Positions 4,279-15,394 of a stretch of 64,000 nt of DNA are shown here, in pieces (position 1 is the stretch's first letter; each line of letters begins with the position of its first letter). Location of the stretch: NCBI GenBank assembly GCA_001244265.2, contig CDLV01000005.1, forward strand, positions 930,001-994,000, written 5' to 3'. Under the pieces are notes generated by a model. That model had not been told where the DNA came from and made no database searches. It worked only from the letters and a program-made list of their open reading frames with translations. The DNA is from Microbotryum violaceum (taxonomy: Eukaryota). Made by a program: the position numbers and the translations under genes.

Positions 4279-5909
4279 ATGGCATCAACTTCCTCCAACC
4301 CGATCCCACCCGAAGCCGGGTTCCCTCCCCTGACCAAAGCAGATGTGATCGCCTGTGCGTTCTCGTCCTGGTACCCGACCTTTCGACGGCACTCCCCCAA
4401 AGCGACGGTGATCGCGCCTCTTTCGGACGAGTTCATCGATTACTTGCAGAGCGATGGCGTGTTCTTACCCGAGGGAAGTGGTCCTATGGGGTTAGTCGGG
4501 CGAAGAATGATCAACTCGGCGTGCTTCAGCGACCGTGTGCTGATCGACTCAACTTCATCAACCCCCTGTCCCCGATGTCCGGAACAATCCGCGCACTCTC
4601 GACACCCCCACGAACTCGAATCGATCGCCAATCCTACAGGATCAGCGAATTGAGCGATTCGGAAGACGGCGAATCAGCGAATGGGACCGAATCGAGTGAC
4701 GATCAATCCTGGCAGGTCAGCTTCCCCAAACTCGACAGCGAGATTCGCGACGTCCTCTTCAAGTACGACGGGGCCGCGTTCCCGAAATTGAATTGGTCGT
4801 CTCCGAGGGTGAGTCCTGTTGGTTGGTTTCAGGCTATGAGAACGAAGTCGAAAACTTTGACTTTCCGGTTCATTTTGATTAGGACGCCGCGTGGATGCTA
4901 CCCGGACAAAATCTTAAATGCCAGAACCCAGCCGACGTCTACCTTTTGCTCAAATCGTCCGATTTCATCACCCATGATCTGGATCACGCTTTCGATCTAT
5001 GTGTCGAGCACACACCCTCAACGCTTTCGGACTCATGGGCGGCACCGGAGGAAGGGCTGACTGAGGGTGCGGGGGCTTTGACTCTGAGCGACGAAGATTC
5101 GGACGAGAAGCGCGAGGGACGACGAATAAGGAGTAGGGAAACTCATTCGTCGTATCCTTTCGAACTCGTGCTGAAGAAGTGGTACGATATTCCGACGTCG
5201 CAGGAGTGGAGGTGTTTTGTGCGGGATAAGCAATTAATTGGTGAGTGGAGTGGTGGTTCGAGCAGACTCGCGGAGGAAGAGATGATCGGTTCTTGCTCAT
5301 CACCTTACGTTACAATATGTGAACCCATCATACAGCTATTTCGCAACGGGACACGAACTACTACGACTTTCTACAACCCGACTCCGTCATGGAGGAACTC
5401 GAGGACCAAATCTCGGACTTTTTCGAAAAGGAGATCCAGCCCGTTTTCCCGTCCACGAATTGTGAGTTGCACCACGACTCGCACAACAAATTCAAGGGTT
5501 GCTGATTCAACTATCTAATATGACAATGAAAGATGTTTTTGATCTATACCTGACCCGAGCTGGCGATCGTTTCTTTATCCTCGACTTCAACCCTTACTCG
5601 AGCACGACCGACGCGCTCCTGTTCACCTGGTCCGAACTAAACGAAATCGTCATCCCCACCTCCGATGGCTCGCGTACATCGACCCTTCCCGAGATACGCA
5701 TTGTCACCTCCGCAGCCATGTCAGCGAACCAAGCCTTGCCGGCTTTTTCCCACAACCGGTACCCGAAGGATGTCGTCGAATTGAGCGACGGGGCGAGTAT
5801 TGCCGAGTTTGCCAAAGAGTGGGCGGCCAAGTTGGAGAAGGGCGTTTTGGATGGGTTGAAACAGGACGAGGACGGACGTGACGAGGTGGAGGAGTTGGCG
5901 GGTCGGTGA
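4279..5909 (+). CDS. CDC123: Cdc123/D123 ATP-grasp protein (eIF2 assembly factor); multi-exon
   Basis: CAFSSWYPTFR, FPKLNWSSPRDAAW, DVYLLLKSSDFITHDL, ELVLKKW...EWRCFVR...ISQRD, FILDFNPY...TDALLFTWSEL. Confidence 0.92.
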
Positions 5910-6298
5910 TTCCTTTGGTGTGCGGTGCTTGGTTTTGGCCTGTAGCCGAGAGCATCGAGTCGGTGAAAATGAGAATGTGAATGAGAATTCCAGCTAGTCT
6001 ACAAAGAGAGACGACCCTTATCGGGCGCTGGTGGGAGGTGGTCAATTTTTCGACGAGCTGAGTGAACGCATTCAGCGAAAAAAACACGGTCTTCGACTTG
6101 GTTGGTATTCGACTTGGTTAGAATCATTGACCTTTTATTCACTGTACGTATCGCTTACAGGTCCGACGAGAAAACGCTAGTATGGGACTGCAACTTTTGG
6201 CCACCTTTGTATTTATAACCTTCGACGCTCGAGCGCTGAGCCGGCTCGTCCGTTCGCGTCCGACTAACCGCATCAACCGGGTGCGCACCCAAGCCACG

Positions 6299-9200
6299 AT
6301 GGCAGACCGGTCACCGTACGGGAAGCCACAGACACTGGCGAACCGCATGAGCTCCAATGCCGGCGAGACGTCGTACCATTTCCAAGTCCGACCCAAAGTC
6401 TACCATCAACAACCATCGGTGCCTCGCAGCGTCGGTGCCTCGGCGGGTAACCTGAGCTTGGGCAACCACTCGGTCGATGGGCGACTCGCACGACCTGCGT
6501 CGTCAACCCAGCCTACCTCGATCGCCGCCACGCCGGGCTCAGCGTTCAGCAAGTCGAGCACCTCGATCGTGCATCGACTGGACGATTTCCAGCCCAACGA
6601 AGGCACCATACGCACGAGCGCGCCTCCGCATATCGTCTCCGCCGCCGCCTCGACCTCCCACACAGCGGGCTCAGGCTCAGGCGCAGGCTCAGGCTCAGGC
6701 TCGGGCTCAGGCGCAGGCTCAGCTTCAGCGTCGACATCGACATTGAGCTCCTACAACGATTCGGCACCGTTGCAAATTGCGAGACCGCGTAACTCGGGTG
6801 CCAACTACAAGACAAACGTCGCCGGTGGATGGAACGACTCGGCTGTACCCCGCGCGCCCATCTCGATCAACGGCAACGCCAATGGCGGCAGCAGCGGTAG
6901 TCTGCTCGACCGGGTCACCGGTGGCCCCGGGGCAGCCTCGCCATCTCGTACGAACGGCATCGCCAACAGCAATGGCACCGATGTGGGTGGTCTGGCTAAT
7001 CGGATAGGCACGTCGAGGTACTCGCCCACGTCCGAGAGGCGCAGTCGTCCCTCGTCCCCCCATCGCGCGTCGTCGATCCCGCTCAAAGACCGCATGCCCT
7101 CGATCAGCCACGACCGAGCGCCTTCGAACCAGTCCTCTCGCGGCCCGACACCACCGCTTCCCCTCACGCACAATCCACCGGCCGCGACGACGGCGACGAC
7201 GGCGACGACGACGAGCACCTCCTCGACATTGCGCGATCGTCTTGCCGCCTCCATCTCCTCCAGCAAGGCCGATCGTCGCGACGACGAGGATTACGTCGAT
7301 CGACGCTGTCGCAGCCTGCTCGAGCGACACTCGGAGCTTGACAGCATCAACCCGCGCCGCTTGCGCGTCGTGACCGTGTCGAATCTACCCCCAAATGTGT
7401 CGCGTGATGATGTTTATGACAACATGTCGCTTTACGGTGACATTGACTGCCTCACTATCAACTCTGACCACGCTCAGCCCGGCCAGCCGCAGTTCAAATC
7501 CGCCGACGTCCGCTTCAAGCACGCCGACGATGCGGCCTGCGCAGTCAAGATCGGCAACATGAGTCGCTTCTGGGCCAGGTCAGCCACCAGTCAGTTCTAC
7601 AAGATTGTCAAAGTGACCTTCATGAAACCCGCTCCTCCCGGTGGTTCATCTGCCCCCTCGTCCCTACCACCTAAATCGACCGTCTCGAGCTCGGCGACGG
7701 CGACGGCCCCAAATCGCAACAGCACCTCGTCAGCGCCTACAAGTGCTCCACCACTCGTCCCGACTGAACCAGCTGCGTCAAAACCGATCTCTGCGACCAC
7801 GCGTGCTCCCGAGACTGCCCCTGCTGTGGTCGGTCAAAGGAGCCTCGTATCCGAGTCGGCCCCCTCTCGTCCGTTCGCACCAAAGCCCGCGGTCGGTCGG
7901 TCCCGCTCATCTTCGGGAACACCGCCGCTCCCCAGTGGTGACCAAATAACGACTCCAGCACGACCTGCCTCGGCTCTGCCTCTTCCTTCGCAACCCGCGG
8001 TGACGGTACCCCCTGGTCTATCGGCGCCTGCCCCTGTTGTACCGCCGTCCGTCGCTCGGTCGGTGATCGATCCCCAGCATCCGAGAATTGTGTTCCCGTT
8101 CTCCAAATTTCCGCCTCAATCTGGTTCCACAAACCCCTTCTCCAGTGCGCCGAATTCATCCAGTGTGGCCGAGCCCGCTGCCTCAAAAGGAGGCGCTGGC
8201 GCATCGTCAGCATCCGCGAATGGCGCGACTTCTGCTCCGAGACCTCCTCAGACGCCTCAAACTACGGTGAGCTTCACTCCTGCTCCGGTGAGCACAGCTG
8301 CTGCTGCGATTCCGCAGCCGACTCCTGCATCCGCGACTTCGAATCCGGCGCCTTCACCTGTCGCCGAGCCACAACCGAGCCAGCTGGACAAATTCACCGT
8401 ATGCGGGCACGACTTTGTCAAAGCCGCGGTGCCACCCGGAACTGCTGCTGTGTTGCCCAAAACTGCCACCCTTGCTTTCAGCTCTCCCACGTACAAGAAC
8501 GCGCATACCTCGATCGGATCCAAAATCGGCAACGGCATCTCGCTCCATCTCTCGCAGTGCGGATTCGTCGTCATGCGCATCTCATGGTGGCGCGACGTAA
8601 ATGCCCCGAAGCCCGGTCAAGGCCTGATGATTGCCCAAGTCGTACCCAAGTCGGCACCGGACCAGATTATGAGAATGGCGAGCGCTGCATTCAACAAGGC
8701 CAACAGTGCTCCGCCCGCTGGGATCCCTATAGCGGTACCTTCAAACTCCAGCAAACGGCCTCGAACTGGTGGCTTGGCGTCTTCGACTGTTTCGAAATCG
8801 ACCCCTGTCACCAGTAGCGACAAGCGAGCTCGGATAGGCCCTGCACCCATGGCTCCAGCGACACCCGTCGAAGATGTGCCGATGATCATGCTCGACGACG
8901 ACGCTCGTATTGTGCGCATCGAGCTACCCGAATCGGCGCGTGGTCCGACTCCCGCCGCGGCCAAGGCACGCAAGGTGCTGCGCAAGCAGCATACGAAGAG
9001 GATTAATTCGGAGGGGACGATCGTTTTGAGCGCTGTGTGAGTTCCCACCACAGCGGGGATCCGAGCTAGCTGGCCCAGTACTGACGAGGACCACTTTTCA
9101 TCACAGCTTCAAAGGCGATGTGCTCGAGATTGCGTACGAAGTCGATGACGACGACGAGGAGGAGGTTGAGGGCGATGTGGCGCAACCATCGGCAGCCAGT

Positions 9201-12200
9201 GCGACCCCGCAACAACCCGCGCCTGCGGTCCTTGCGACCAGAAGGGAGTCGTCCGTCAGCAACGTCGATGAGGATATCAAGCCCGATAAGAACGCTCTTT
9301 CCCGCGTTGACCCAAATGACGAAGAGTTGGATATGATCATGTCTGAGCCAGAGATACCCGAGCCTAACCCCGTCTACTTCCCTCGCGAGATCAGGGTCGT
9401 CTGCACCGCTGACTCGATCGAGACTCAAAAGGCCGTCGAAAGCTTTATCGACGATTTCTTCACTCGCTTCGATTCAGATCGGGTCTCGCTACAATACCTC
9501 TACCACCTCGAAAGCGCGTTCTCGGTTCGCGTTGTGCCGAATGTCCCGCCTCGCATGCAAGGGATGTACCAGCACGTGCATCCTTTCCAGCGCAAGTTTA
9601 TGGTCGCGGCGGGCAAGACCTACCTCACCCCGACCGCCATCGCCAATGCGATCGTCAAGCTGCCGGCCGGGTCCCACGACATTGGGAACCTCATCTACGA
9701 CGCGCGCGTCGTCAGTGATCTCCGACGTGGTCTGCCGCCGAGTCGGCTCGTTCCCATCGTCCTGCATCTGCATGGAACGTTCGAAGAGTTCCCCGAGCAC
9801 ATTGTGCGCAAGATCACTCGCACATTCGTCCTCGTCCCTCGTGACGCCAGCACCGGCGGGCTCAACATGCAGCGGTCGCCCTACGTCATCAAGACGGATC
9901 AGCTCGTCTTTTCGCACTACGACCCTAAAGCGCCGACGCAGCTTCTCGTCGACCCTGCTCAAGGTCCCTTCGTCAAGAACCAAGGGCAAGGGAGCGGCTC
10001 GCCGAGGAAGAAGCGGGTCAGCGAGAGCGCGAACACCGGCCCGCCTTCGATGGGAAACGCGCCCATCTCGCAGGTGCCTACGTTCCGCAAGCAAACACCT
10101 CTGCAACCGCTCGCGCAAGCGCCAGTCCCAGGTCCAGAACCACCTGTTGCCGTGGCTTCCGGCACCCGTGGCTCTGAGACGGTCGAGCCTAACAATGCCC
10201 CCGTTCCGCAAGCCGGCCCCTCCAACCCTACCCCCGCACCTGTCTCGGGGCTCGCTCCTTCCCTCTTCAGCGCTCGCACGACTCCTGCTCGCGCGAACCC
10301 TGATGTGCTCGTCATCTCGGACTCGTCCGACGATTCCGACTCGGGCAGTGATGCCGCCAGCTCGGGCACGCCAGAACCAGTATCTCGACCCCGCGTACCT
10401 GTGCACTCGCCGCCGAACCCACTTCAGGGACTTCCGCCCCCGATCCTGCGCCCTCGAGGTACATCTGAGTCTTCTTCCTCTTCTCGACAAGAATCGATGC
10501 CTGTGGACGAGATCGACGATGGCGACAGCGACACGCCGGACCAGCCGAGTGTCGACGTCGGCAAAAAGAAGAAAAATAAGTCGGCTGTCACCCCGGTAGC
10601 TACATCCACGGTGACGCTCTCGGTACAGCAGATGGAGCGGTTGGTCGCGAAGCAGGTGCGAGCCGTGATGCGGGAACAGGAACGCGAGCGTGAGCGCAAG
10701 AAGAAACGGAAGCGTCGCCGCGCGCGTTCTGACTCGGATGACTCGGACGACGACAGTGACAAGGAAGCCGATTCGGATGACGATGACTGCAATGAGGATG
10801 AGGAGGAGGGGGATAGTGACATCGTCATTGCTGATGGTCAGTTGGCATCGGTTTCAGGTCATCGCAGCGACGTCTCGTCGACGGCGCGTGCAAAGAAGCG
10901 ATCCAAGGACAAGAACCACTCGGTTGCGACCGCGGCCGCGAATTTGGCCAGTCCTTCCGGCAGCGATGGTCGTATTGCCATCTCGATTGGCACTTCAGCC
11001 ATGCCGCACGGCTACGATGGCAAGAGCAACAAGATGCGATGGATGATTGACATTGGATCCTCTTTCTTGGGTGTCTCGATGTGGGGGGACGTGATCGAGT
11101 GGACGGGCAAGGTCGGCCCGAACGCCGTGCGCAAGTTGCATGAGAGCAAGGGCAAGACGTTCGCCGTCGACGACATCGCTTTCTCGCGCAACAAGAACGT
11201 GCTGGTCGTACCTTACCTTGGTGGCAAGATCGACAAGGCCGGTACCACGCCAAAGAATCAGGTCACGTTATACGAGCGCAAGGTCGATCGTCAAGGCCTT
11301 TCCAAAGTGATCGAAAGCCCTCTTTTTGCGCAACCACATGGTAGGGGTGGTATCACAGCAACAATGGTTCTCCCTGGTGCCGCGTCGGCTCGATTGCAGT
11401 TCATCACTGCTGGTGAAGACAAGATGTAAGTGCCCACTTTGGTCGTCTGCTTCGGAGCCACTGAAGCCTCATCCCAAGTTCGTGCACTATGGTGCAGGAT
11501 GTACCTTTGGACGCGCGCTCGTTCCGACCGCTCAATCTCGACCGAACGACTACCTTGCGAACACACGTCGACCATCACCTCCCTTGATCACCTTGCATCG
11601 GACAGTTGGCTGATCTCGGGAGGCGCCGATAAACGAGTGAGTTTGGATGGCGAGCGTATTTTCTCGATCGTAAATTGCCCATTGACCATTCGTTCCTTTG
11701 TTGTCTCGTGCAGGTCGTCGCAACGAACATTGAACAAAGGCGAAACATGTGGTCGGCTCTGCTCCCGAATCCCGTCTACTCGGTCGAGCCTTCGTGAGTT
11801 TTTCAGCGTCATGATCTGGGCTGTCTGCCTTATCTCGAACTAAAAACCCCATTTTTATTCGACGCAGACCTATTAACCCACACCTCATCCTTGCGCGGCA
11901 AAGCTCATCCTCGGATCAGTTCCGTCTGTACGACACGCGCCAGTCGGGAGCGGGACCGGCAGTGTTGACCTTTGGATTCCCTCTCGCGCCACGGGCGATC
12001 TCGACTTCGAGTGTTCCGGTTGCGCCGAATCTGGGCCGGTACTACGCGGGCTCGCCCTTGCGCGAGTTTGCTTATGCGTTCCCAGACTTGCAGCAAGGGG
12101 TCAAACTGTGGGATCTGCGCAAGGCAACGAGCGCGATCGGTGGGGATGGAGCGGGTTCGTCTTCTTTGGTGCCGAGGATGCAGAGCATGCACGGTGTGGC

Positions 12201-12288
12201 GAGTAGCAAGGTGGTGCAGGTGCTGTGTCGCAACGACGAGCTTGCTTTGATGGAACAGCAAGGTTTCACCTCTGTTCGGATTCGATAG
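6299..12288 (+). CDS. Large (~1,900 aa) protein: disordered N-terminus + RRM + NXF1/Mex67-type NTF2-like domain + acidic/basic NLS region + WD40-like C-terminus; 5 exons
   Basis: ORFs 6182-9040 and 9120-11429 join in frame through intron 9037-9106 (GTGAGT...CACAG), with further introns near 11426, 11637 and 11795. RRM: VVTVSNLPPNVSRDDVYDNMSLYGDI...ADVRF. NTF2L: FIDDFFTRFDSDRVSLQYLY...HGTFEE...RTFVLVP...IKTDQL. WD-like: HTSTITSL...LISGGADKRV, VKLWDLRK. Confidence 0.8.
6668..6723 (+). repeat. (GGCTCA)n-type hexamer repeat encoding a Gly-Ser linker
   Basis: ggctcaggctcaggcgcaggctcaggctcaggctcgggctcaggcgcaggctca translates as GSGSGAGSGSGSGSGAGS. Confidence 0.85.
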
Positions 12289-12705
12289 GCGGCTCGGTCC
12301 GTTGGGGCACACTTGGGGGTGTCGTGCCTGCTTTTCTTCGTTTTAGCTCACAGGGGTTGCTTGGTCTGTTTTTAGATTTGCTAACTTCTGATTTATGTTA
12401 TGTTATTTCTGTTAGTTTAGGGGGTAGTGCTTGCACAGGCTGCGCTCAGAAGTTGTTTTTTGCACAATGTCACGTCCCATGTTACGATAGTATTTCATCG
12501 CGAGATACAAGCCTTATGTGACGATGTGTTGTACTCTTGAAGCCAGCACCATGTGAGACGTGAGACATATCTTGCGACGCGCGTCGATTTGTGAGCGCGC
12601 GCCGGAAACAGCCGTCGCGTTGACTTCGGCTCTTCCCCCTCGGTCCCTCTGTCTCCGTCTTCGTCTCCGTTTGCCCGTTCGACCTTCGCGGGCTTGGATC
12701 GGGTC

Positions 12706-15394
12706 ATGACTTCTATCTTGTGCGACGTGACGAATGTAGTCTCCGCAGGACAATCGACCAGTCCTTCGACTTCTGCAGCTGCTTCTGCGTTGAAGCACAG
12801 GTCTTCGTCGTCTTCGTCTTCGCCTCCCGTCGCGGCGCGCCTGGCTTCGTCATCGTCGGCGACAGGCGCCAGTTCGATCACGGCGCGTCGTCGCGGTGCA
12901 GCACGTCCTCCCGTTCTTCGTCAAACCAGCTTGGACTTCTTCGCCCCTACTTGCACACCGCCTGTCGCAAACTCGTCTTCGCATCCGGGATGGAGCTCAC
13001 GCGCGACTCGCGTCGACGACGCGAAAGAGAACGAGACGCGCGCGCAGCATACACCTCCGCCGACGCAGCCGCACGCGCCATCCTCGTCCTCGCCAGCCTG
13101 TGCTGCCTTCGCCTCGTCCCCAGCAATGACCATCACCTCCGCCAGTGGTAGCTCGTGCCACGATGACGGATCGGATCAACGATCCTCTCCTCTCGCGTCC
13201 CGTTACCTTACTGCACTGCAGCACACTCGCGACGAAACCGATTCGAGCATGGACATTGACGAGGACGACGCGTTCCTTTCATCGCGCAACGTTCTCAAGC
13301 GAGCTAGGAGTCAATTCGGCGGCGACGGCGAGGAAGGCGAGCAGGAATCGCTCGGCGCTGCTCGATCACGCCACCACTCGAGTCGAGTTCCTACCCCTCC
13401 CGTTCAAGTCCACTCTTGGTCGACCACGTCTAACCCGACGAGAATGATCGAGTCGATTTACAATATGCCTCAGCGCACCCTGTCGGTCCACGAGATGCTC
13501 CGCCGCAGGGCTTTGGGAATGAACGTCAGCATGCAACAAGGTGAGTACGAGAAGAAGTCAGTGGTTGAGTACATATGTAATTCGACGCTGATGGTGCATT
13601 CATTGTCTTCGTAGTCTCTCTTCGACCCGTTTTACTTGACTTGGTGTCGAGCAATGAGCACCACGTCGTGCGCTGCCCTTCCTCGAGATGCGATCGCATC
13701 CTGGCGTATCCGTTTGCGTCCAAGTTCAGCAATGGTCAGTCTCGTTGAATCCTTTCAGTTCGTTTAGACTGTATCCACGTAGGTTTACTGATGCGATTCG
13801 CTCTCATTGAAACAGCTGCGAAAGCTGGAGGCAAGCAAATCCTTGCGATTGGTGACGAGGAAGGCGGTTTGACCTTTATCGATGCGAGCAAGCAGAGCCA
13901 GTGGGATACAGGTGAGCGGCATGATCGGGTTCCCTTGTATCTGCAAACGGTTACTTAAATGCCCCTGCCCCTACTTCGAATTCGTAGACACCTCGCGCAC
14001 TTCGTTTCAAGCTCACGACAACGCTGTCTTTGACATTGCTTGGAGCTCGGACGATCGCACAATCGTGAGTGTACCGCGAAGAACCCGCTTGATGCACTGT
14101 GTTCCAGAGGACTGACGCCCCATCGCGACCATGTCAGACCACGGCCAGTGGTGATCAAACAGCCGTTTTGTGGGATGTCGAAACCATGACGTGCACGGGT
14201 AGGCTCTTAGGCCACTCCGGCACGATAAAGAGTACCCAGTGGGATCCCAAGAACCCGAGTACGTATTTTGTCCGATGGGGTCGTGCGAGAATATCTCAGC
14301 TCAATCCTCGCTCGTATCGTGCAGACCTACTGGCCACAGCTTCGCGTGATGGCGCGATCAGGATCTGGGATCGACGGATCGACAGCCGAGGGGAGGATGC
14401 TCGTAACCATCAAGATGGCTCGGCGATTGGCTGCGTCAACATGATCAGAAATGCCCATGGAGGGGCGAAGAAGACCAAGGAGGTGCGCATACCCATCGAC
14501 TTGATTTTCTCGATGTAAATGCTGACGTTATGTAGCACTACACATTGCAGTCACCCAAGAGTGTCACTGCCGCAGTGTTTTTGCCGCAGTCTGACAACCT
14601 GCTCGCTTCGTCTGGGTCTGCAGACTCGTGAGTGCTCGAGCGATTAAGTGCTTCTCTGAAGCTCTGACTGACTCGACTTTATGTCGCCTTACTTTTTTTT
14701 TGGCAGAGTGATCAAAGTCTGGGATCTGCGTCGATCCCATTCTCGTCGGGTCAACCCCGCCTCGTTCGAAACGAACGAAATTGCAGTCTCGAACACGTCC
14801 TCGAAGCGACCGCACGGGATCAGTTCGCTCGTTTTGTCCCCGGACGGCAGAGCACTATATTCGCTCGGAACGGACGCTGTGTACGTCCCGAGCTTCCCAC
14901 ATTGAGCATTGTCCTCTAAGCTGACATACTCACGCTCTTCAACAGCATCTCATCCTTCAAGCCGGGCAACTTGACCCATTCTTATCCCCTGGCGACGTAC
15001 CAGCACCCCAACCTGGTCGTCAACTCGTTCTACATCCGCTTAGCCGTCTCTCCCGATTCGAGATTCATCTCGTGTGGTTCGACCGATAACGCCGTTTATG
15101 CTTGGGACACGTGCGCCGCTGCGGACCAAGGGGTCAAAATGGTCGGGCATGAGAAGGAAGTCAGTTGTGTCGATTGGTCCGCTCAGGGGGGGGTGAGTCA
15201 AACAGTGCTGTGTCCCCCGATTCGGGGAAGGCATAAGTTGACCTTTTCTTGTTCCACGCGCTGTGCAGTTGGTTTCCTGCTCCGATGACGGCTTGGTCCG
15301 ACTGTGGTCGAGCGATCGCGAAAAGGCGCGTAGGATTCGTTCAAACGAAGTCGAGGATCAGGAGATCGGTTGGAGATGGTGTGGAGCAGTATAG
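12706..15394 (+). CDS. CDT2: WD40 protein of the Cdt2/DTL family (CRL4 substrate receptor); many exons
   Basis: ILAIGDEEG, FQAHDNAVFDIAWS, TASGDQT..LWDVE, GHSGTIKS, LATASRDGAIRIWDRR, IKVWDLR, RPHGISSL and NSFYIRLAVSPD...SCGS match the Cdt2/DTL WD repeats. Confidence 0.85.

Follow-up and report, generated by a model that had tools for sequence, protein, structure and literature searches.

A 64,000-nt window of Microbotryum violaceum DNA (contig CDLV01000005.1, positions 930,001 to 994,000, forward strand) contained a gene, here named LONG, encoding a protein of 1,898 amino acids (aa) in which an RNA recognition motif (RRM), an NTF2-like domain of the type carried by the mRNA export factors NXF1/Mex67, and a C-terminal WD40 propeller were combined. 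All of LONG is encoded by a single spliced, expressed message, and the family is inherited vertically in the Microbotryomycetes beside a normal Mex67. LONG is a large multidomain protein, disordered for the most part. The architecture, the paralogy, and the novelty hold; the adaptor function is a proposal. In our judgement, there is about an even chance that it is a nuclear adaptor linked to RNA or ribonucleoprotein (RNP) and built on an NXF-derived dimerisation module.

The segment at about nt 9430–9920, which the initial annotation of the window had read as an NXF-type NTF2-like domain, was assigned to that type by both profile and fold. Residues 110–267 of exon 2 matched Pfam NXF_NTF2 (PF22602) with an E value of 3.5e-19 and a score of 69.9 bits versus a cut-off of 27, whereas the match to the general NTF2 profile (PF02136; E = 0.013) was below cut-off and much weaker. 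An AlphaFold model of 518 residues of the orthologue P0001, running up to and through the domain, possessed three folded parts joined by low-confidence linkers. Foldseek searches with the NTF2-like domain returned Mex67, TAP, Nxf1, and Nxf2 as top matches, and VIA superposition gave Z scores of 17.3 to 19.2 to NXF1 (19.2), Mex67 (17.3–17.6), Drosophila Nxf1 and Nxf2 (17.8 for Nxf2), and C. elegans NXF2, versus 13.5 to 15.5 to NTF2, G3BP, Rasputin, and Bre5. Comparison with 30 canonical Mex67 domains revealed 21 alignment columns conserved in both groups; the LONG domain lacked an insertion of about 20–25 residues conserved in canonical fungal Mex67, and NXF_NTF2 scores were 48–76 bits in the LONG family versus about 145 for the canonical proteins. 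The RRM of LONG belongs to the general class RRM_1, whereas a canonical Mex67 carries the NXF-type RRM_9, so an NXF ancestry is traceable for the NTF2-like domain and for no other part. Thus, of the earlier proposal of a repurposed NXF paralogue, the NXF origin of this domain stands, but "NXF-derived domain in a new protein" is a safer description than "NXF paralogue".

Neither an LRR nor a UBA had been visible on first inspection, and none was found here: the LRR (PF24048) and TAP_C (PF03943) profiles had no Pfam match at E ≤ 1 in the window exons, LRR_NXF1-5 and TAP_C were found in none of 19 full-length relatives, and the 518-residue model contained no solenoid. In canonical Mex67 of the same class (two proteins scanned), TAP_C passed its cut-off and LRR_NXF1-5 was detected below cut-off. 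According to one report, NXF1 needs phenylalanine-glycine (FG) pockets in both its NTF2-like and UBA domains, and mutation of either leads to loss of nucleoporin binding (bioRxiv 10.1101/609693, citing Braun 2002). Because the UBA-type FG pocket, required jointly with that of the NTF2-like domain when NXF1 crosses the pore, is absent, LONG would not itself be an export receptor.

Canonical Mex67 was sought in the genus and the class through protein databases. A search with the canonical sequence returned 33 proteins of about 570–680 aa, most with precomputed LRR_NXF1-5, NXF_NTF2, and TAP_C assignments. Canonical Mex67 and LONG were found together in 14 species: M. intermedium (P0104 being Mex67 and P0002 LONG), which places a separate canonical Mex67 within the genus, and 13 others. 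Because of this coexistence, LONG appears to be an additional protein and not the export receptor.

The same observations bear on an alternative in which LONG has a specialised role in export or in docking at the pore, pairing with Mtr2 through its NTF2-like domain and transporting only some RNAs or RNPs to or through the pore, alone or beside Mex67, by analogy with the metazoan NXF variants and trypanosome Mex67b, which divide the labour. Such a role would agree with an NTF2-like domain that is NXF-type by profile and fold and shares 21 conserved columns with canonical Mex67, as well as with the sharing of Mtr2 by all three trypanosome Mex67 paralogues (PMC12774637). We nevertheless consider it unlikely, given the lack of UBA/TAP-C in all 19 relatives when NXF1 needs both pockets for nucleoporins, the missing insertion, and the low domain scores.

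LONG (nt 6299–12288, + strand) comprised five exons with a coding sequence of 5,697 nt, specifying 1,898 aa and a TAG stop codon, built from four + strand stop-to-stop open reading frames (ORFs; 6131..9040, 9030..11429, 11430..11843, and 11815..12288). Its introns, at nt 9037–9106, 11426–11497, 11637–11713, and 11794–11867 (70, 72, 77, and 74 nt, respectively), all began with GTGAGT or GTAAGT and ended with CAG. The start codon agreed with those of the annotated orthologues P0001 and P0002, and the protein was identical in 1,814 of 1,906 alignment columns to P0001, which is annotated in Microbotryum saponariae with a length of 1,895 aa. Transcripts were examined in four public sequencing runs, all belonging to a single study of a relative that shares about 95% identity with the window. 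In each of the four, one contig of 5.7–5.9 kb spanned nt 6288–12318; one of these (run X4) extended to nt 12477 and entered an A run there, so placing the end of the 3′ untranslated region (UTR) at about this position. Every contig lacked exactly the four introns, with joints 9036>9107, 11425>11498, 11636>11714, and 11793>11868, all GT..AG; the first of them, singled out for checking in the initial annotation, was bridged by one contig in all four runs. The 12 indel rows listed between the relative and the window netted to multiples of three, as expected of coding sequence. We take the contigs, which lack the introns and in one case end in poly(A), to be cDNA; formally, they could instead stem from a retrocopy carried by the relative. 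These findings agree with the single spliced ORF of about 1,900 aa originally described, and the peptides quoted in that description were found in the window translation.

Fusion of two or three neighbouring genes by an erroneous gene model might be suspected because the domains lie far apart across long disordered linkers and some database entries are fragments. It is scarcely credible here: one open frame runs from the NTF2-like domain into the initial blades of the propeller, a conserved small domain crosses intron 1, one contig per run covers the whole with introns removed, and the same domain order recurs in the 19 independently annotated relatives.

Several further features of the gene were observed. 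Contig cover was interrupted only at nt 6662–6749, where the alignment tool passed over a (GS/GA)n repeat, and an intron at this position was therefore rejected; the underlying microsatellite, coding for (GS/GA)n, lies at nt 6665–6718 in exon 1, and the contig of the relative is about 12 nt longer over nt 6662–6749, an in-frame length difference. The contig of run X2 carried 87 nt upstream of nt 6288 with no match to the window (about nt 6200–6288), maybe a diverged 5′ UTR or a 5′-UTR intron. The window offers a further ATG upstream in the same frame (MGLQLL...), but the orthologues are annotated from MADRSPYGKPQ onward. The annotation of P0002 (M. intermedium) reads in frame through intron 1, with 28 extra residues (alignment columns about 1049–1076); since the contigs splice this intron, the P0002 gene model probably retains it.

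A search for long proteins yielded five relatives in Microbotryum, Rhodotorula, and Sporobolomyces. With the NTF2-like domain as query, an exhaustive phmmer search of 1.84 billion representatives returned just 59 proteins at E ≤ 1e-3. These included the LONG family (E = 1e-126 to about 1e-15), mostly of 1,300–2,000 aa, followed after a score gap by canonical NXF/Mex67 proteins of 570–690 aa (E = 1e-6 to 1e-3), and one low-complexity false match. Among the 19 full-length relatives, NXF_NTF2 and a C-terminal WD40-type region were present in all, and RRM_1 in 16. The 16 named species carrying LONG were all Microbotryomycetes, in the orders Microbotryales, Sporidiobolales (in which we place Rhodotorula and Sporobolomyces), and Kriegeriales. 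The true range may be wider, since six or seven unnamed fragments branched below the named members in a quick tree. The databases label family members "hypothetical protein", apart from the R. toruloides orthologue (P0011 / P0063), which one record calls "nuclear mRNA export, poly(A)+RNA binding protein" and another "proteophosphoglycan ppg4". Both labels were assigned automatically and are at odds with the architecture. No characterised homologue with the RRM-NTF2L-WD40 architecture (NTF2L, NTF2-like) was found in protein databases, and open-access and bioRxiv text yielded no paper dealing with it or with Mex67 from the genera concerned. One relative, P0006 (Microbotryomycetes sp. JL221, 1981 aa), had an extra canonical WD40 region behind the family propeller (residues about 1627–1968, E = 1.4e-32), and its gene model may be fused with a downstream neighbour.

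In a maximum-likelihood tree of NTF2-like domains (53 rows), LONG formed one clade (100/100) and Mex67 of the class another (100/98). The Mex67 part followed the fungal phylogeny, and LONG joined at the base on a long branch. The internal branching of LONG mirrored that of Mex67 in the same taxa, with path lengths about twice as long for the same species pair (summed branch lengths of 1.9 vs about 0.8).

An RRM distant from the NTF2-like domain had been placed at about nt 7365–7625. It was clear in the orthologues, which matched RRM_1 with E values from 1e-9 down to 5.5e-13; a profile of five family members matched solved RRMs with E values down to 2.2e-16, and the Sporidiobolales RRMs keep Tyr or Phe at two of the three aromatic positions of RNP1 and RNP2. 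The copy in the window itself fell just under the Pfam cut-off. Of the other folded parts before the NTF2-like domain, the small domain was conserved across the family and had no usable match in an atlas look-alike search; a wide fold search with the 518-residue model gave a list filled by NTF2-like matches, with none listed for the middle module or the small domain.

The C-terminus, described at first as beta-propeller-like, was modelled as a complete propeller. Pfam recognised a single WD40 repeat in the window, at 22 bits below the cut-off of 27. An AlphaFold model of the C-terminal 374 residues of a 96%-identical orthologue, built from a 20-row alignment, was all-beta and closed, with seven blades (mean predicted local distance difference test score, pLDDT, 85.6; predicted template modelling score 0.86), the protein terminating in the last propeller strand. 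It superposed on WDR91, WDR5, EED, and COP1 with Z scores of about 29 and a root-mean-square deviation of 2.4–2.7 A over 290–300 residues at 11–14% identity. Atlas look-alikes comprised only tied generic WD40 clusters, and a search for shorter propeller proteins gave 26 matches, 25 of them fragments of the same family and one a generic WD40 protein (E = 1.4e-8), with no standalone orthologue within the reach of that search. Ahead of the propeller, the cluster KKKRKRRR reported earlier was located at nt 10698–10721 with an acidic Ser/Asp tract directly behind it. From their composition, these basic and acidic tracts are a candidate nuclear localisation signal or a nucleolar-type tract.

Nucleolar proteins typically carry acidic Ser/Asp tracts and Lys-rich ones, and the generic propeller matches include the ribosome-biogenesis proteins WDR12, a pre-60S chain, NOL10, and the Pfam models of WDR3, Utp21, and WDR55. 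LONG might thus be a nucleolar pre-ribosome or small nucleolar RNP factor. These matches, however, were tied with WDR5, EED, G-beta, and beta-TrCP and so carry no specific signal, and a protein restricted to one class is improbable as a core ribosome-assembly factor. The insertion missing from LONG may correspond to a Mex67 loop that aids 60S binding, which would count against this role as well. A precedent is the UBA-less Mex67L of Trypanosoma brucei (TbMex67L), a divergent protein of 108 kDa that is required for maturation of the 60S subunit and still pairs with Mtr2 (PMC12774637); by analogy with it, a nucleolar function is conceivable for LONG but decidedly unlikely.

GW motifs in disordered regions serve as Argonaute hooks, and two DxR or WDxR boxes in consecutive repeats mark DDB1-CUL4 receptors (DCAFs). 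Both kinds of motif occur in LONG, and it could be imagined as an RNA-guided silencing or ubiquitin-ligase adaptor in which GGW motifs hook Argonaute, the propeller is a DCAF, and nascent RNA is tied to chromatin modification, a role akin to the Nxf2 precedent of the initial annotation. In 15 of the 23 family sequences, a GW motif (one to three GGW each) preceded the RRM; most of the other eight had short N-termini. Two DxR boxes, at nt 11920–11943 and 12100–12123, were invariant in 20 sequences and, in the model, lay at strand ends of consecutive blades (D257-x-R259 and W316-D317-x-R319); DDB2 and DCAF4 were among the generic propeller matches. One to three GW motifs are few, though, the WDxR motif is common in WD40 proteins, and the Pfam Ago-hook profile had no match in the family members scanned. 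Expression of Dicer, an RNA-dependent RNA polymerase, and two Argonautes in M. lychnidis-dioicae (PMC4469406) fits such a role, which we nonetheless hold to be improbable.

Carried further, the RRM and GGW hooks would capture Argonaute-bound transcripts, the NTF2-like domain, freed from export, would dimerise or dock the complex, and the DxR-box propeller would bring DDB1/Rik1-CUL4 to chromatin, so that LONG would bridge nascent RNA, Argonaute, and a cullin-4 ligase in one polypeptide. This is speculation to which we give very little weight; if true, LONG would be an independently evolved fungal counterpart of Drosophila Nxf2-Panoramix, and a single polypeptide would embody the fission-yeast RITS-to-CLRC link.

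The nuclear-adaptor reading is favoured because LONG lacks both UBA and LRR and coexists with a normal Mex67. In this mechanism, LONG would be linked to RNA or RNP through its RRM, or else through a protein that binds the degenerate Microbotryum RRM. The NTF2-like domain would provide for dimerisation and docking, pairing either with itself or with a protein of the Mtr2/NXT1 type, and an additional complex would be brought in by the propeller together with the conserved linear motifs.

Several results tell against this reading. When the window's NTF2-like domain was compared with solved structures by phmmer, only non-significant matches to Mex67 (E = 0.54 and 0.97) were obtained, so that the basis of the NXF assignment is the Pfam profile together with the fold prediction. 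The RRM_1 match in the window (nt 7370–7549, E = 5.9e-4) reached 20.1 bits versus a cut-off of 20.7, and the aromatic positions of RNP2 and RNP1 were Thr, Ser, and Asp in the Microbotryum alignment; for these two reasons, RNA binding by the Microbotryum RRM is doubtful as judged from its sequence. The structural matches of the propeller were all tied, with no family-level match, and thus indicate no specific partner. The runs used for the transcript check are recorded only as a guessed RNA type. Finally, the unconstrained tree placed LONG outside all fungal Mex67, and forcing it to be sister to Mex67 of the class cost 7.4 log-likelihood units without being rejected (approximately unbiased test, p = 0.20), so that no claim is warranted either for a class-level duplication or for an older origin.

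Compared with Mex67/NXF1 (TAP), LONG shares the NTF2-like domain by PF22602 and fold, with a domain of RNA-binding type N-terminal to it, but lacks the NXF LRR, the UBA/TAP-C, and the conserved loop insertion, has RRM_1 in place of RRM_9, is three times longer, carries a WD40 propeller and two small modules in addition, and forms a separate clade on a long branch. Drosophila Nxf2 (SFiNX/Pandas/PICTS), named earlier as the precedent, is likewise NXF-derived and without an export receptor role, and is close to the LONG domain in fold. According to bioRxiv 10.1101/609693, Nxf2 has lost nucleoporin binding and keeps duplicated RRM-LRR units, pairing with Nxt1, and a Panoramix-binding UBA. The comparison therefore holds for the NXF-derived domain and is weak in detail, the RRM-LRR units and the UBA being missing from LONG. 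TbMex67L (PMC12774637) resembles LONG in being large and UBA-less, with long extra N- and C-terminal regions, beside a canonical factor; unlike LONG, it keeps its LRR, has coiled coils instead of an RRM and propeller, and belongs to an unrelated lineage, so that its 60S role is not transferable.

G3BP, Rasputin, and Bre5 also combine an NTF2-like fold with an RRM and long disordered regions; their domain order is reversed relative to LONG, in which the RRM precedes the NTF2-like domain, they have no propeller, and the Z scores of LONG are 13.7–14.4 to G3BP and Rasputin versus 17–19 to NXF. WDR5, EED, WDR91, and DDB2 and other DCAFs share the closed seven-bladed propeller, and LONG has two DxR boxes, but identity to LONG is 11–16% and all matches are tied. 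The coordinates of the features are collected in Table 1.

Table 1. Features of the LONG gene and protein in the window (nt positions, position 1 being the first letter of the window)
Feature	Position	Strand	Remarks
Exon 1	6299..9036	+	ATG at 6299; donor GTGAGT at 9037; contigs over 6288–6661 and 6750–9036; disordered N-terminus, RRM, Pro/Ser/Ala-rich linker, middle alpha/beta module, first half of small domain
Exon 2	9107..11425	+	Joints 9036>9107 and 11425>11498 in 4/4 runs; rest of small domain, acidic linker, NTF2-like domain, disordered region, basic/acidic tracts, first propeller blades
Exon 3	11498..11636	+	Propeller; joints in contigs; matches P0001
Exon 4	11714..11793	+	Propeller; joints in contigs
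Exon 5	11868..12288	+	Propeller; stop TAG 12286–12288
N-terminal linear motif RxEDxQPSEA...R..PP (family consensus)	6575..6628	+	Invariant alignment columns
(A/T)GGW motif, NVAGGWNDS	6815..6841	+	Conserved, in disordered N-terminus
RRM	7361..7627	+	Degenerate in Microbotryum, aromatic RNP1/RNP2 positions replaced
Middle alpha/beta module, beta-alpha-beta-beta-alpha	8465..8695	+	Residues 33–111 of P0001 AlphaFold model, pLDDT about 70–82
Small domain, beta-beta-alpha-beta-beta-alpha	8903..9149	+	Straddles intron 1; model residues 176–247, pLDDT 92–97
NTF2-like domain, NXF-type	9372..9971	+	Pfam core 9435–9908; model pLDDT mostly ≥90
Helix-like segment LSVQQMERLV...REQERERER and basic cluster KKKRKRRR	10617..10721	+	Conserved, followed by acidic Ser/Asp tract
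Seven-bladed WD40 propeller	10965..12285	+	Interrupted by introns 2–4

Upstream of LONG, a gene of the CDC123/D123 family was located at nt 4883–5909 (+ strand; Pfam D123, E = 1.4e-29 and 2.1e-19), split across at least two frames and hence intron-containing. Downstream, an open frame of 339 aa at nt 12595–13614 (+ strand) was Ser/Ala/Pro-rich and had no Pfam match at E ≤ 0.01.

Fungi are usually treated as single-Mex67 organisms. Here a whole fungal class retains, beside Mex67, another protein bearing an NXF-type domain; no description of its RRM-NTF2L-WD40 architecture was found in open-access and bioRxiv text or among protein-database names. The misleading names of the R. toruloides orthologue, "proteophosphoglycan ppg4" and the "nuclear mRNA export" label, are corrected. 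LONG would be a third independent reuse of the export-factor fold, after insect Nxf2/Nxf3 and trypanosome Mex67L. Since LONG is present in the genetically tractable Rhodotorula toruloides, the role of an NXF NTF2-like module apart from passage through the pore can be tested there.

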